This document shows positions 8,010 to 13,390 of a stretch of DNA of 32,400 nucleotides, piece by piece; position 1 is the stretch's first letter, and the number at the start of each line of letters is the position of its first letter. This DNA comes from a virus. Lineage: Duplodnaviria; Heunggongvirae; Uroviricota; Caudoviricetes. The position numbers and the translations under genes were made by a program. The notes beneath the pieces are model-generated. The model was given only the letters and a program-made list of their open reading frames with translations. It ran no database searches and was not told where the DNA came from. The stretch spans positions 1-32,400 of the IMG/VR virus record IMGVR_UViG_2778261574_000008; one strand, given 5' to 3'.

Positions 8010-8660
8010 TTATGGAAGGTTTGCTAGTTTTGCATCGACAACTACGCCGATGATTTTGCAGTTTCCGTTGATCTCGATCATCGGATATTGTGGGTTAAGT
8101 GGTTTTAGAAACTTCCTGCCTGCATCAATAACTAACTTCTTGAAAGTTGCCTCGTTTTCTCCTTCGAGCTTTGCAACTACCAGTTTCCCGTTACGCGGCT
8201 CTACTTCAGGATCGACGAGTATTATCATTCCTTCAGGGATACTGAGACCGGCCGGAGCCGTCATTGAGTCTCCCTTCACGTCCAACCAAAACGAATCTTC
8301 TGAACAGTCTACGGTTGTATCGTACCAGTTATCTATTGCACGCTTATGATATGGTTCTACAGCTTCCATCCAGCATCCTGCGCTCACCCAGCTAATCAGA
8401 GGGTATGACCCTCTTGGATCATGCCTACTGTGATAGGCAATGTTTGAAAGACTTTCCTCTCCTTTCATCAGATAGTCAGGGGAACACTTCAACGCATTAG
8501 CCAGGGCGAGAAGATTCTCTCCATTTGGCTCTGTCTCAGAGCGTTCCCACTGAGATATGGCAACATTAGACACGCCGACCATCTTTCCAAGTGCGGCCTG
8601 CCTGATCTTGAGTTCTTTTCTCCGAGCGCGAATGCGCTCTCCCATCAATTGAGTTTTCAT
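8010..8660 (-). CDS. c2: Prophage repressor, P22 C2 / lambda CI family (HTH plus S24 LexA-like peptidase domain)
   Basis: 216 aa; near-identical by recollection to P22 C2 (MNTQLMGERIRARRKKLKIRQAALGKMVGVSNVAISQWERSE ...); divergent from cro across an operator region. Confidence 0.9.
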   Translation of the reverse strand: MKTQLMGERIRARRKELKIRQAALGKMVGVSNVAISQWERSETEPNGENLLALANALKCSPDYLMKGEESLSNIAYHSRHDPRGSYPLISWVSAGCWMEAVEPYHKRAIDNWYDTTVDCSEDSFWLDVKGDSMTAPAGLSIPEGMIILVDPEVEPRNGKLVVAKLEGENEATFKKLVIDAGRKFLKPLNPQYPMIEINGNCKIIGVVVDAKLANLP

Positions 8661-8740: not shown

Positions 8741-8926
8741 ATGTACAAGAAAGATGTTATCGACCACTTCGGAACCCAGCGTGCTGTAGCTAAAGCGTTA
8801 GGCATTAGCGACGCAGCAGTCTCTCAGTGGAAGGAAGTCATCCCAGAGAAAGACGCCTATCGACTGGAAGTCGTTACAGCTGGCGCCCTGAAGTATCAAG
8901 AAAGCGCTTACCGCAAAGCGGCATAA
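8741..8926 (+). CDS. cro: Cro repressor (P22-type)
   Basis: 61-aa HTH protein divergent from c2, directly downstream of pR. Confidence 0.8.
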   Translation: MYKKDVIDHFGTQRAVAKALGISDAAVSQWKEVIPEKDAYRLEVVTAGALKYQESAYRKAA

Positions 8927-8932
8927 GCAAAT

Positions 8933-8977
8933 TGCTCTTTAACAGTCATGGTCCTCATTCCCGCCGAAATGCGGGAA
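8933..8977 (+). promoter_or_regulatory. nutR (boxA TGCTCTTTAACA plus boxB hairpin)
   Basis: boxA at 8933-8944; hairpin TCCCGC-CGAAAT-GCGGGA at 8959-8976, identical to the nutL boxB. Confidence 0.55.
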
Positions 8978-9034
8978 TACAACGCGCATAAGTTGATGCG
9001 CATAACTTCTTATTTGTTAAGGAAATACTTACAT

Positions 9035-9328
9035 ATGGTTCGTGCAAACAAACGCAACGAGGCTCTAAGAATCGAGAGTGCGTTGCTTAACAAAATCGCA
9101 ATGCTTGGAACTGAGAAGACAGCGGAAGCTGTGGGGGTTGATAAGTCGCAGATCAGCAGGTGGAAGAGGGACTGGATTCCAAAGTTCTCAATGCTGCTTG
9201 CTGTTCTTGAATGGGGTGTCGTCGACGACGACATGGCTCGATTGGCACGACAAGTTGCTTCGATTCTCACCAATAAAAAACGCCCGGCGGCAACCGAGCG
9301 TTCTGAACAAATCCAGATGGAATTCTGA
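9035..9328 (+). CDS. c1: CII-like transcriptional activator (P22 C1)
   Basis: 97 aa from [35 protein letters not shown]..., matching my recollection of P22 C1; the ORF-track start at 8948 would run through nutR and is rejected. Confidence 0.8.
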
Positions 9329-9360
9329 GGTCATTACTGGATCAATCCACAGGAGTCATT

Positions 9361-9507
9361 ATGACAAAACAACTCAGTCCTTACCAGGACAAAATTCACA
9401 AACACATACTACGTGATCGCTTCCTGTCCAGCTTCAAGCAGCCTGGTCGATTCCGGGCTGAGTTGGAAAAAGTGAAGCTGATGCAGAAGGAGAAAGGTCA
9501 TGAGTAA
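9361..9507 (+). CDS. Hypothetical small protein (48 aa) between c1 and the replication genes
   Basis: Stop overlaps the ATG of the O-like gene; basic composition. Below the ORF-track cutoff. Confidence 0.35.
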
Positions 9508-10360
9508 TCTTGCAACCGTAACACATTTAAGGCCTTCACAACGGCCTGTGGAGCGTCGTGTGGCAGAAGTTGAAGATGGTTATACCCGTCTTGCAAATGC
9601 CCTGTATGAAGAGCTTATCGGCGCAGATTTAACTAAAAATCAGAGCAAGGTTGCCCACGCCATATGCCGTAAAACATACGGCTACGGTAAAAAGATGGAT
9701 CGCATCTCTGATAGTCAGTTAGCTCAAATTACCAGGCTGCCAAGACAGAAGGTAAACAAGGCCAAGAATGAGCTTATCGCGATGAAGGTTATCCTTCGCG
9801 AAGGCCAGCAAATCGGGCCTAACAAGAACATCGAGGAATGGCAAATCGAAGGGTGTCACTACTCTGGTGATAATGTCACTGCATTGGTGACAAAAAGTGT
9901 CACCAAAACGGTGACAGCGCTGTCACCAAAACAGGGACACACAAAAGAAACTATTACAAAAGAAAAAAGAAATAATAAAAACACTATGTCCGAAAGTGTT
10001 CGGACGGAGTGTGAAAAATCACCTGACCGTCACGAAGAAACCGACAAGGCATTCGAGGAAATATTCTGGTGTGCAGGCATGCGGAAAGCCGGGAAGAAAA
10101 ACGCAGCTTCGGCATTCAGAACACAGTTCAGGGAATGGCGTAAAACTACCAAGGGTACGGCAAGCGAGTTTGCCACGATGCTGGCAGAAGACATCGCATG
10201 CAGGAATGGTAAGCAGTTCGGATTCGACAGGTTGTTACCATCGAGCTACCTGAACGGTCAGCGCTGGAACGACGAAAAGCCAGAAACCATTCAACCACAA
10301 TCCAAACCATCATCCGCAATCACCGTATCGAAAACTGGCTACGTGTTTTTCGACAGGTGA
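9500..10360 (+). CDS. Replication initiation protein, lambda O-like
   Basis: 286 aa at the O position; N-terminal region resembles phage replication protein O; iteron-type origin embedded mid-gene. Confidence 0.65.
9851..10007 (+). repeat. Putative origin of replication inside the O-like gene (iterons plus A/T-rich tract plus palindrome)
   Basis: Repeated GTGTCAC / GGTGACA units at 9851-9933, an A-rich tract at 9934-9985, then inverted repeat GTCCGAA-AGTG-TTCGGAC at 9988-10005. Confidence 0.5.
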
Positions 10361-10363
10361 ACC

Positions 10364-10471
10364 ATGAAATCAAAAATCAAATCGCTACTGGTCGCTGGTT
10401 ATAACCACGGCTGGTTAAGTATTTCGTTTGTCGATTTCTGGTTTAAAAATCTCAATCTGAGGGAATCATGA
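10364..10471 (+). CDS. Hypothetical small protein (35 aa), translationally coupled to the primase-helicase
   Basis: Stop TGA overlaps the downstream ATG (ATGA). Very short; weak support. Confidence 0.3.
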   Translation: MKSKIKSLLVAGYNHGWLSISFVDFWFKNLNLRES

Positions 10472-12348
10472 CGCCAAGTGAACTTAGCGACCTGCTTTGG
10501 GCGCAGGTTGACAGGGTGGCTCCGCACCTGTTGCCAAACGGCAAGAAAGAGGGGCATGAGTGGGTTGCCGGTAACGTCAACGGTGACAAGGGAAACAGCC
10601 TTAAGGTCAACCTTAGCGGCAAGAAAAAATGGGCTGATTTCGCTGAGGGAGACGGCGGTGACATGCTTGATTTGTGGATGGCATGTCGTGGAATTAACCT
10701 GCATCAGGCTATGCAGGAAGCGAAAGCATTTCTCGGTATCAAGGATGACGATCACCATTTCGATGCCAGACGTGAGAAGAAATTCTCCAGACCTGATCGC
10801 AAGAAAATCGCCCGCTACGTTACCAGAACAGAATCCCATCTTGAGTACCTGCAATCGCGTGGCATATCGCCAGAAATCGTAAAGCGCTACGAGGTTGTCA
10901 GCGGCAAGGTGTGGAATGGAGAGCGAGAACTGGATGCTCTGGTGATTCCGTACAAACGCGATGGTGAGTTGTTGCAGGTCAAGCGAATCAGCACTGAGCG
11001 CCCGGACGGGAAGAAAGTCATTATGGCAGAAGGTGATTGCGAACCTTGTCTGTTCGGATGGCAGGCTCTGGACGCTGGCGTGAGGGCGGTTGTACTTTGC
11101 GAAGGCGAAATTGATTGTATGAGCTATGCGCAATACGGCATCTCGGCGTTATCCGTGCCGTTTGGTGGAGGGAAAGGCGCTAAGCAACAGTGGATTGAGT
11201 TTGAGTATCACAACCTCGACAGGTTTGAGGAAATATTCATCTCGATGGACGTTGATGATGTTGGTCGTGAAGCCGCAAGGGAAATCGCAAGCCGACTCGG
11301 TGAACATCGTTGCCGTCTTGTTACTCTGCCGTACAAAGACATCAACGAATGCCTGATGAACGGTGTTACCGAGGATGAAATCTGGCAGTACATCGGCACG
11401 GCATCCTACTTCGATCCTGAAGAACTCTACAGTGCGCGAGAGTTTTACCAGGACACTATCAACGCTTTCTACGGCAAGCAGCAGTATCTGTTTAATCCAC
11501 CGTGGGAATCTCTGGCAGATAAATTCCAGTTCCGTGAGGCAGAGTTGACGCTGGTCAATGGTGTGAACGGTCACGGAAAAACGGAGGTTGTCGGGCATAT
11601 GGCACTTGAGGCAATGCGTCAGGGTGTGAAGACGTGCATCGCGTCACTTGAGCTGAAGCCAGGCATTCTTCTTAAGCGACTTACCCGTCAGGCGACGTGC
11701 TGCAAGATGCCGCCAGTGCTGGAAATTGACTCTGCATTTAAATTTTATGACGAAAGACTTTGGGTGTTTGGCCTGACCGGAACGGCGAAAGCCGACAGGC
11801 TGATCGAAATATTCGACTACGCTCGCCGCCGATACGGCATCCAGTTATTCATCATCGACAGCCTGATGAAATGTGGCATAGGCGACGATGACTATAACGG
11901 GCAGAAGGCGTTTGTTGACTCGATTTGCGACTTCAAAAACAAAACAAACTCCCACGTCATTCTCGTTACTCACTCGCGAAAAGGAGACAGCGAAGAAAAA
12001 CCAACCGGGAAAATGGACGTAAAAGGCTCTGGAGCGATAACAGACCTGACAGACAACCTTTTCATCATATGGCGTAACAAGGCTCGCGAGAGAGCGTTAC
12101 AGAGAGTTCAGAGTGGTGAAAAAATGTCAGAGAAGGACGAACAGCTACTGGCATCTCCGGCATCTGTTTTGATGCTTGAAAAACAACGTAACGGCGAAGG
12201 TTGGGAAGGTGGTGTCCCGTTGTTCCTTGACGAGCAATCGCACCAGTTCCTGCAACTTGAATCAGGATCTCCATATAGCTACATCGCCAATATGCCGAAA
12301 TCGGAATATGACGAGGCGTGGCGACAGGAAAACGTGACGGAGTATTAA
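10468..12348 (+). CDS. Bifunctional DNA primase / replicative helicase (Toprim domain plus RecA-like NTPase domain)
   Basis: 626 aa; Toprim motif VVLCEGEIDCMSYAQ; Walker A GVNGHGKTE; Walker B-like LFIIDSL; occupies the P / DnaB-like gene 12 slot after O. Confidence 0.75.
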   Translation: MTPSELSDLLWAQVDRVAPHLLPNGKKEGHEWVAGNVNGDKGNSLKVNLSGKKKWADFAEGDGGDMLDLWMACRGINLHQAMQEAKAFLGIKDDDHHFDARREKKFSRPDRKKIARYVTRTESHLEYLQSRGISPEIVKRYEVVSGKVWNGERELDALVIPYKRDGELLQVKRISTERPDGKKVIMAEGDCEPCLFGWQALDAGVRAVVLCEGEIDCMSYAQYGISALSVPFGGGKGAKQQWIEFEYHNLDRFEEIFISMDVDDVGREAAREIASRLGEHRCRLVTLPYKDINECLMNGVTEDEIWQYIGTASYFDPEELYSAREFYQDTINAFYGKQQYLFNPPWESLADKFQFREAELTLVNGVNGHGKTEVVGHMALEAMRQGVKTCIASLELKPGILLKRLTRQATCCKMPPVLEIDSAFKFYDERLWVFGLTGTAKADRLIEIFDYARRRYGIQLFIIDSLMKCGIGDDDYNGQKAFVDSICDFKNKTNSHVILVTHSRKGDSEEKPTGKMDVKGSGAITDLTDNLFIIWRNKARERALQRVQSGEKMSEKDEQLLASPASVLMLEKQRNGEGWEGGVPLFLDEQSHQFLQLESGSPYSYIANMPKSEYDEAWRQENVTEY

Positions 12349-12425
12349 ATGACCATCTACATCACTGAGCTAATAACATGCCTGCTGGTAATCGCAGGCC
12401 TTTTTATTTGGGGGAGAGGGAAGTC

Positions 12426-12866
12426 ATGAAAAAACTAACCTTTGAAATTCGATCTCCAGCACATCAGCAAAACGCTATTCACGCAGTACAGCAAATTCTT
12501 CCAGACCCAACCAAACCAATCGTAGTAACCATTCAGGAACGCAACCGCAGCTTAGACCAGAATCGAAAGCTTTGGGCTTGCCTTGGTGACGTCTCTCGTC
12601 AGGTTGAATGGCATGGTCGCTGGCTGGATGCAGAAAGCTGGAAGTGTGTGTTTACCGCAGCATTAAAGCAGCAGGATGTTGTTCCTAACCTTGCCGGGAA
12701 TGGCTTTGTGGTAATAGGTCAGTCAACCAGCAGGATGCGTGTAGGCGAATTTGCGGAGCTATTAGAGCTTATACAGGCATTCGGTACAGAGCGTGGCGTT
12801 AAGTGGTCAGACGAAGCGAGACTGGCTCTGGAGTGGAAAGCGAGATGGGGAGATCGGGCTGCATGA
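12426..12866 (+). CDS. ninB: NinB recombination protein
   Basis: 146 aa from MKKLTFEIRSPAHQQNAIHAVQQILPDPTKPIVVTIQERNRSLDQNRKLWA..., matching lambda NinB by recollection. Confidence 0.85.
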   Translation: MKKLTFEIRSPAHQQNAIHAVQQILPDPTKPIVVTIQERNRSLDQNRKLWACLGDVSRQVEWHGRWLDAESWKCVFTAALKQQDVVPNLAGNGFVVIGQSTSRMRVGEFAELLELIQAFGTERGVKWSDEARLALEWKARWGDRAA

Positions 12867-13390
12867 CTATCAAATCAAATACGCCAGCACACGACAAGGA
12901 CTGCTGGCAAACGCCGCTTTGGCTTTTTGATGCGCTGGATATTGAGTTTGGATTCTGGCTGGATTCAGCTGCGAGCGACAAAAATGCTCTGTGTGCTCAC
13001 TGGCTAACTGAGGCCGACGACGCGCTCAATTCTGAGTGGGTAAGCCACGGTGCAATCTGGAATAACCCACCGTACAGCAATATCAGGCCGTGGGTGGAAA
13101 AAGCCGCTGAGCAGTGCATACAACAGCGACAGACGGTAGTTATGCTTGTGCCAGAGGATATGTCAGTCGGATGGTTCAGCAAGGCTCTGGAGAGTGTCGA
13201 CGAAGTTCGCATTATCACTGATGGACGGATTAATTTTATCGAACCATCGACAGGGCTGGAGAAGAAGGGAAACAGCAAAGGCTCCATGCTGCTGATTTGG
13301 CGACCGTTCATCAGTCCTCGACGGATGTTTACTACCGTATCCAAAGCGGCATTGATGGCGATCGGGCAGGGCGTCAGGAGGGCGGCATGA
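12863..13390 (+). CDS. Phage Dam-like DNA N6-adenine methyltransferase (orphan)
   Basis: 175 aa from MTIKSN (ATGA overlap with ninB); contains the N6-adenine methyltransferase catalytic motif NPPY; replaces ninC/ninD of lambda. Confidence 0.7.

Follow-up and report, generated by a model that had tools for sequence, protein, structure and literature searches.

How does a lambdoid phage start replicating its DNA when the gene for its O-type initiator is followed neither by a lambda P-type helicase loader nor by a DnaB-like helicase? The question is raised by the replication module at positions 9361 to 12348 of a 32,400-nucleotide stretch of phage DNA (Caudoviricetes; IMG/VR record IMGVR_UViG_2778261574_000008, positions 1 to 32,400 of that record), the whole of which is referred to here as the window. 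The module is an ES18-type lambdoid replication module, ordinary and already described, and consists of a small open reading frame (ORF), an O-like gene with an internal origin (ori), a 35-codon ORF and the gene for a 626-residue primase-helicase. The C-terminal domain of the O-like protein, the 35-residue protein and the primase-helicase are 95%, 97% and 94% identical, respectively, to their ES18 counterparts. It is regarded as highly probable that the parts are correctly identified and that, overall, an O initiator with an internal ori is combined with a 35-codon gene and a phage-encoded primase-helicase. What is added here from sequence comparison is that the O C-terminal domain, the 35-codon gene and the primase-helicase are inherited together while the O N-terminal domain and the iterons are swapped, and that the 35-codon ORF is under purifying selection.

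Identity and catalytic residues of the primase-helicase

The primase-helicase gene spans positions 10468..12348 (+). The original prediction described its product as a fusion of a Toprim domain and a RecA-like NTPase standing in place of a lambda P loader or a DnaB-only helicase like P22 gp12, and the domain searches bore this out. Toprim_2 was matched at residues 209-296 (Pfam, E 3e-12), followed by AAA_25 at residues 357-507 (28.0 bits, Pfam cut-off 27) and DnaB_C, and a standard helicase-only protein was not the outcome. No match to the lambda P family was obtained with Pfam for the proteins encoded at 8948-13390 (cII, the DUF2740 ORF, O, the 35-residue and 626-residue proteins, NinB and Dam), nor with PHROGs or NCBIfam among the four replication-module proteins, and the DnaB N-terminal domain (PF00772) gave no match in the 626-residue protein, the N-terminal half of which is primase. 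The protein belongs to PHROG 239, annotated 'DNA primase/helicase' (E 1.4e-171).

Searches against the PDB retrieved T7 gp4 with the single sequence (E 2.7e-23), and a profile of the 61-member family retrieved T7 gp4 at 6e-55 and Twinkle at 3e-44, primase and helicase being aligned in order. Further profile matches were to DnaB, G40P and KaiC on the helicase part and to Aquifex DnaG on the primase part, and a Foldseek search with the AlphaFold2 (AF2) model placed Twinkle and gp4 on top. Two observations weigh against this assignment: DnaB_C, at residues 355-594, scored 23.8 bits, just under the Pfam cut-off of 27, and the full-length AF2 model reached a predicted local distance difference test score (pLDDT) of 65 overall, with a good primase half and a weak helicase half. 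By homology the protein is nevertheless a T7 gp4/Twinkle-type fusion, with a DnaG-type primase followed by a superfamily 4 (SF4) helicase. A P4 alpha-type protein (archaeo-eukaryotic primase with superfamily 3 helicase) was ruled out, the primase being of the Toprim/DnaG type and the helicase of SF4.

Three parts were delineated. Residues 1-95 (10468..10752, +) have the fold of a DnaG-type zinc-binding domain (ZBD) without zinc ligands; residues ~105-296 (10780..11355, +) form the RNA polymerase domain of the primase, made up of an N-terminal subdomain and Toprim (209-296); and residues 355-594 (11530..12249, +) form the SF4 (DnaB/gp4-family) RecA-like helicase domain. Across the 61 family members, at 26-60% identity, the invariant columns were S44, D57, R131, K172, G197, E212, G213, E214, G233, D261 and D291, and D263, K371, E395, D464, H502 and R574 were conserved in at least 90%. 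The helicase motifs comprise Walker A (G370-K371), E395, Walker B (D464), H502 and the arginine finger R574. In HMMER alignments with T7 gp4, E212, D261, D263 and D291 correspond to E157, D207, D209 and D237, K172 to K122 and R131 to R84. In the Toprim site of gp4, the four acidic residues presumably coordinate the metal. Catalysis by gp4 is reported to require E157, D207, D209 and D237, together with K122 (PMC2910064).

The tail at the C-terminus of the 626-residue protein (12295-12348) is acidic, and its last residue is aromatic (...PKSEYDEAWRQENVTEY). Among relatives at least 69% identical, Y614 and V623 are invariant, and W618 and N622 are conserved at 90% or above. In T7 gp4, an acidic C-terminal tail contacts the polymerase, and by analogy a protein of the host replisome could dock on the tail seen here.

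The zinc-less N-terminal domain and primase activity

It had been claimed that the roughly 200 residues upstream of Toprim contain no zinc-finger motif. That observation stood, but the region is not without identity, as it comprises the DnaG-type ZBD fold and, after it, the N-terminal subdomain that belongs to the RNA polymerase domain. The only Cys or His residues within positions 1-95 are H20, H30, C73 and H79, none of which is conserved in 95 family representatives; columns 18-80 of that alignment hold no conserved Cys or His at all, and neither a Cys4 nor a CHC2 set of zinc ligands was found in the N-terminal domain. Pfam returned nothing useful for the primase N-terminus at E up to 10. 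The NCBIfam dnaG model matches residues 26-143 (E 2e-9), and an AF2 model of residues 1-105 alone reached a pLDDT of 88. The DnaG-type fold and the lack of conserved Cys or His together indicate that the family carries a zinc-ribbon fold from which the metal site has been lost.

Within this domain S44 and D57 are invariant, the latter in the motif G-x-S-L-K-V-x-L-x-G-x-K-x-W-x-D-F-A, and G35, G39, G42, W55, F58, G64 and D65 are conserved at 90% or above. Such strong conservation, together with the confidently predicted fold, points to a retained function rather than decay, most likely one in template handling. The primase is probably active, because its active site is fully conserved.

Against an active primase stands the loss of the zinc ligands, as a result of which the phage might still need host DnaG. 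The 626-residue protein would on this alternative be a helicase only, like human Twinkle, with its priming disabled, and the absence of a Cys/His tetrad from residues 1-95, in the window and in the 95 representatives, is in its favour. Two precedents also speak for it: the 56-kDa form of T7 gp4, which lacks the ZBD, carries out no template-directed primer synthesis (PMC2910064), and metazoan Twinkle, which lacks the four cysteines, has no primase activity (PMC3610141). However, metazoan Twinkle has lost other primase motifs as well (PMC3610141), whereas R131, K172, E212, E214, D261 and D291 are invariant here and D263 nearly so, and the zinc-less domain itself is strongly conserved and predicted to fold with confidence. 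A helicase-only protein is accordingly considered unlikely.

The 35-codon open reading frame

The ORF that separates the initiator and primase-helicase genes (10364..10471, +) had been described as translationally coupled to the latter, and indeed its TGA stop overlaps the ATG at 10468 as ATGA. Its product belongs to PHROG 21848 (E 4e-26) and is a homologue of ES18 gp60 (33/34 residues identical). Eight loci from six genera (the window, ES18, SEN22, phi24B, Fraca and prophages of Proteus, Xenorhabdus and Pantoea) each contain an ORF of exactly 35 codons, placed in every case between the initiator and primase-helicase genes, with a stop codon that overlaps or abuts the downstream ATG (ATGA, TAATG or TGATG). 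The amino-acid consensus is MK.xIK..L..GY..G.LS..FV..WF..L.LR. Pairwise comparison of seven of the loci gave uncorrected ratios of nonsynonymous to synonymous differences per site (pN/pS) of 0.25-0.43 in divergent pairs, with pS of up to 0.87.

These values indicate that the 35-codon ORF is a real gene and that the peptide itself, beyond the coupling, is under purifying selection. A mere translated leader, bringing ribosomes to the primase-helicase start and having no protein function, would account for the very short length, for the lack of a Pfam match (up to E 10) and for a stop codon that always overlaps or abuts the downstream ATG. It would also suit Vibrio phage 1.239.O, in which the 35-codon ORF is missing and a DnaD-like gene is itself ATGA-coupled directly to a 60%-identical primase-helicase. 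In a pure leader, however, the peptide would be free of constraint, while the observed amino-acid sequence is kept at the above pN/pS with synonymous sites near saturation, and the length is constant at 35 codons throughout the eight loci. A leader without protein function is thus improbable. The arrangement in Vibrio phage 1.239.O does count against a general role for the gene, since it means that the small protein is not universally required. That the protein acts as an adaptor or assembly factor is a guess.

The O-like initiator and its internal origin

The O-like gene that had been proposed was recovered as a Phage_rep_O initiator of 286 residues at 9500..10360 (+), with matches to Pfam PF04492 (E 1.1e-37, residues 20-114) and TIGR01610 (E 1.7e-30). 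Three parts can be distinguished: an N-terminal origin-binding domain (approximately residues 1-116), an origin-encoding linker (117-160) and a C-terminal domain (161-286; 9980..10357, +). Identity to lambda O is 49% over about residues 1-157. Beyond residue 157 no similarity to lambda O was detected by BLASTP, the 22% identity of a global alignment being noise, and the C-terminal domain shares no homology with the part of lambda O that binds P. This domain corresponds to PHROG 33384/270 and gave no Pfam match (up to E 10); a PDB sequence search with O gave no match. It is presumed to be a partner-recruitment domain.

The original prediction also placed a block of iterons, A/T-rich sequence and palindrome inside the O-like gene, at 9851-10007, in the arrangement of the lambda ori. 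The block was located at 9854-10012 and aligns iteron for iteron with the lambda ori. It begins with four 19-bp iterons, each with the internal dyad TGTCAC-N7-GTGACA, at 9854-9872, 9874-9892, 9898-9916 and 9921-9939, giving start-to-start spacings of 20/24/23 bp. When one mismatch at most was allowed, this dyad occurred four times in the 32.4-kb window, always in the O gene, against 0.07 occurrences expected, and none of 100 shuffles reached four matches. The iterons are in register with the annotated lambda iterons at 39034/39054/39078/39101, and their spacing is identical. To their right lies an A/T-rich segment (9940..9980; 17.5% GC over 9940-9979, with flanks of about 45-55%), the sequence of which (CACAAAAGAAACTATTACAAAAGAAAAAAGAAA) is almost identical to that of the lambda ori in an alignment with lambda and ES18, and which is by this analogy the presumed DNA unwinding element. 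An imperfect palindrome follows (9981..10012), with 14-nt arms at 9981-9994 and 9999-10012, a 4-nt loop and 86% complementarity; it is kept in ES18, while the lambda sequence differs there. The origin falls, as it does in lambda, within the part of the O gene that encodes the interdomain linker. These alignments indicate that the window origin is homologous to the lambda ori, beyond mere likeness of layout.

Relatives with an O-family N-terminal domain also have four iterons spaced 20/24/23 bp (19/24/23 in Pantoea), the sequence of which shifts with the N-terminal domain: TGTCACCAAAACGGTGAC in Proteus, TTTACCGAATCAGTAAA in Xenorhabdus and TTACCCGAATCAGGTA in Pantoea. In phi24B, three copies of GGGGTGGGGCAGGAGCTGCCC are present. 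The fixed number and spacing, combined with a sequence that co-varies with the O N-terminal domain, argue for a functional protein-DNA pair. That the block is instead a relic or a regulatory O-binding site, with the true start elsewhere and set by primase-helicase recognition or, in the manner of the T7 primary origin, by transcription, is very improbable: although the origin of this phage group has been mapped by no experiment and gp4-type helicases can load without an initiator (self-loading of Twinkle, reported in PMC9723800), the lambda ori with which the block aligns, unwinding element included, was defined by experiment, the iterons of the relatives are constrained in the manner just described, and the O gene is always retained beside the primase-helicase.

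Exchange of parts among relatives

Identities to the window were compared separately for the O N-terminal domain (1-116), the iteron/linker region (117-160), the O C-terminal domain (161-286) and the primase-helicase. The respective values were 53%, 32%, 95% and 94% for ES18 (gp59 being its O-like protein), 21%, 14%, 95% and 99% for phi24B, 71%, 73%, 56% and 69% for the Proteus prophage, and 46%, 27%, 70% and 76% for the Pantoea prophage. The phi24B initiator has an HTH_36 N-terminal domain in place of Phage_rep_O, and phage Fraca combines yet another, fourth type of N-terminal domain with a 54%-identical C-terminal domain, the 35-codon ORF and the primase-helicase. The O C-terminal domain, the 35-codon gene and the primase-helicase are thus kept together behind four types of N-terminal domain (lambda, TGTCAC, HTH_36 and Fraca), and in the prophage relatives of Proteus, Xenorhabdus and Pantoea the O gene always adjoins the primase-helicase gene. 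Mosaic junctions fall inside the ori, as matches in the phage database start at 9976 (Stx2 phages) or 9927 (ES18 group). From these comparisons, the N-terminal domain and iterons make up one exchangeable unit and the C-terminal domain and its downstream partner another, which is the classical lambdoid picture.

Physical contact between the O C-terminal domain and the primase-helicase is supported by this pattern of co-inheritance, not proven. Vibrio phages PVA1 and D59 weigh against an exclusive pairing: there a C-terminal domain 40-46% identical to that of the window is followed not by a primase-helicase but by a small protein that weakly resembles P-like loaders (PHROG 109, E about 3e-4). 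Partners of more than one kind are therefore found with this C-terminal domain family. A strict specificity of the C-terminal domain for the primase-helicase is weakened by these phages.

The window variant of the module is widespread. The whole 3.1-kb module, with TGTCAC iterons, is 98.5% identical in vB_EcoP-720R6, mEp043 and Sf101, and in E. coli chromosomes identity reaches 99.4%; some match was found in 1522 of 5426 complete E. coli genomes, and in 168 of them one match covered 80% or more of the query. In mEp043, Sf101, vB_EcoP-720R6 and the E. coli prophage copies, the small ORF often lacks an annotation. Members of the primase-helicase family number in the thousands in Enterobacterales prophages, under the names 'toprim domain-containing protein', 'bifunctional DNA primase/helicase' and 'twinkle protein'.

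Several further observations were made on these relatives. In the Stx2 phages phi24B (HM208303, 13435-16341), Min27 and Stx2a_F403/F451, the primase-helicase has 968 residues and is 99% identical to that of the window outside an intein-like insert of ~340 residues (Pfam Hom_end_hint and LAGLIDADG_3), which starts a few residues past the Walker A lysine, K371 of the window protein; the Hint match begins at residue 379. The protein is annotated 'P' in these phages, and the Min27 match extends over two annotated features, 'putative replication protein P' and 'putative DNA primase'. In E. coli NZ_CP083512 and NZ_CP062855 an otherwise 99% identical module is interrupted, the match falling into two pieces, and in strain elppa4 a gene for an HNH endonuclease with a NUMOD4 motif lies within the matched module region. 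This suggests homing-endonuclease traffic in the module. Vibrio phage 1.239.O (MG592605, 28708-28773) carries two non-coding RNA features annotated 'CRISPR spacer' inside gene 47, ~1.6 kb upstream of the primase-helicase; as short regular repeats in a replication-region gene, these look more like miscalled origin iterons.

Proposed mechanism of initiation

By analogy with the lambda ori, the N-terminal domain of O would bind the four iterons and the adjoining A/T-rich segment would open. In lambda, the C-terminal domain of O recruits P bound to host DnaB. The unrelated C-terminal domain encoded in the window would recruit the phage primase-helicase instead of P-DnaB, possibly with the help of the 35-residue protein. 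The primase-helicase may then load itself as a ring in the manner of gp4 and Twinkle, self-loading of the latter being reported in PMC9723800. The helicase ring would unwind in the 5'->3' direction, RNA primers would be supplied by its own predicted Toprim active site, and host DNA polymerase III would extend them, because no phage polymerase gene is present in the module from O through the primase-helicase.

With a self-loading primase-helicase of its own, the phage would initiate without host DnaB, DnaC and DnaG. We lean, with some reserve, towards independence from host DnaB and DnaG. A more ambitious proposal can be offered only tentatively, and is on present evidence rather doubtful: the O C-terminal domain, the 35-residue protein and the zinc-less primase-helicase might together make up a self-contained initiation device, independent of DnaB, DnaC and DnaG, in which the 35-residue protein serves as a minimal adaptor or loader between the initiator and a self-loading primase-helicase, and the zinc-free ribbon still directs sequence-specific priming. 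Weighing against the scheme in general, no experimental study of the ES18-type module was found in the literature searched, and every functional step is therefore drawn from homology.

Layout of the window and the early-right operon

The surroundings of the module are those of the early-right operon of a P22-like lambdoid phage. A P22-c2-like repressor gene (8010-8660, minus strand) and cro (8741-8926) are followed by cII (Pfam Phage_CII, E 4e-48), the 48-residue DUF2740 ORF (9361..9507, +; Pfam DUF2740, E 9e-29) and the genes of the module described above, downstream of which lie NinB and then a Dam methylase. The first 25 kb of the window match the P22-like coliphages vB_EcoP-720R6, CUS-3 and Sf101 through immunity, nin and virion genes. 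A satellite source of the primase gene, of the kind of a phage-inducible chromosomal island, was ruled out on account of these matches.

The stop codon of the DUF2740 ORF overlaps the O start (ATGAGTAA). In the Proteus, Xenorhabdus and Pantoea relatives, too, an ORF of 47-58 residues overlaps the start of O, and gp58 occupies the equivalent position in ES18; the DUF2740 ORF belongs to the operon as a conserved gene upstream of O. PHROG 1913 and the RefSeq copies of mEp043, Sf101 and SEN22 call it 'tail protein', a label that is very unlikely to be right because the ORF sits in the early-right operon and overlaps the O start. Its start codon context (CAGGAGTCATTATGACAAA) is that of the O gene in lambda.

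A strong intrinsic-terminator hairpin was found on the minus strand at 9277-9304, at the 3' end of cII, with a 12-bp stem followed by a T-run. The 120 bp around it are nearly identical to the end of lambda cII and the cII-O junction, and the position matches the one at which the antisense oop RNA of lambda terminates. By this analogy the hairpin probably belongs to an oop homologue. An Rfam scan of the whole window returned no family at its threshold, including none for the oop-like region.

Directly after the primase-helicase stop, a consensus scan gave a candidate intrinsic terminator, a G+C-rich hairpin with a T-run at 12380..12399 (+), which we presume to occupy the position of lambda tR2. 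The NinB ORF as called by the program (12378-12866) starts inside this hairpin. The Pfam NinB match starts at residue 19, and an ATG is present at 12426 (MKKLTFEIR...); this ATG is the more likely start and leaves a 77-bp intergenic gap with the hairpin. Two minus-strand ORFs opposite the primase-helicase gene (10399-11133, 244 residues; 11149-11598, 149 residues) had no PHROG match and were treated as chance ORFs opposite a well-supported gene.

Comparison with known systems

As a discovery the module carries little weight: it is annotated in ES18 (AY736146), many E. coli genomes carry it with little change, and the literature names it among the standard types of replication module in P22-like and lambdoid phages. 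The label 'P' given to this primase-helicase in the widespread Stx2 phages phi24B, Min27, Stx2a_F403 and F451 is of some practical consequence, as conclusions drawn from lambda O and P, for example on the sequestration of DnaB by P, should not be carried over to these phages. The remaining points of note are the zinc-less primase domain and the conserved 35-residue protein, both of which are family-wide and not specific to the window.

Among the nearest described systems is that of ES18 itself, genes 58-61 of which show the gene order, A/T-rich segment and palindrome of the window. The GenBank record (AY736146) describes gp59 as 'similar to phage lambda gpO' and gp61 as 'putative primase/helicase; similar to phage T7 gene 4'; its rep_origin is marked 'similar to lambda ori', and gp60 is entered with 'function unknown'. 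The O N-terminal domain and iterons of ES18 are of the lambda type (ATCCCTCAAAACGAGGGA), whereas those of the window are of the TGTCAC-N7-GTGACA type, the two N-terminal domains being 53% identical. The module is discussed in PMC2629481 and PMC10307801 and is also present in epsilon34, g341c and vB_SosS_Oslo; the O homologues of epsilon34 and Scho1 are 96-97% identical to ES18 gp59, and their N-terminal region is 94% identical to that of lambda O (PMC2629481). No substantive difference from the window module was seen in mEp043, Sf101, vB_EcoP-720R6 and the E. coli prophages.

With lambda the window shares the homologous O N-terminal domain, four 19-bp dyad iterons in the O linker and a near-identical A/T-rich segment. 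Upstream, the end of cII (3') and the terminator resembling that of oop are nearly identical as well. The O C-terminal domains are unrelated, and the P loader is replaced in the window by the primase-helicase and the 35-codon gene, so that recruitment of host DnaB by P is not expected.

T7 gp4 and mitochondrial or plant Twinkle have the same domain order as the window protein (ZBD fold, RNA polymerase domain with Toprim, linker, SF4 helicase) and share its catalytic residues, although identity is only about 25%. The ZBD-like domain of the window protein differs from theirs in being of the longer DnaG type (95 residues). Metazoan Twinkle lacks the zinc ligands, as does the window protein, but the latter, unlike metazoan Twinkle, has an intact primase active site. 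The context also differs, the gp4-like protein being paired here with an O-type initiator in a temperate phage, with no polymerase gene in the replication module.

The Eru1-3 replication types of Stx phages, so far as they are described in the relevant portions of PMC8044961 and PMC8951638, are different modules, with a superfamily 2 helicase and a separate 323-residue Toprim protein or with an O-like protein and DnaB, and no named Eru type was matched to the window module from those portions. In P22, genes 18 and 12 likewise combine an O-like origin binder with a phage-encoded SF4 helicase instead of a loader. P22 gp12 is a DnaB-type helicase and, going by the title of Wickner 1984 (in PMC8022706), acts with the DnaG primase of E. 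coli, whereas the helicase encoded in the window is gp4-like and has its own primase.

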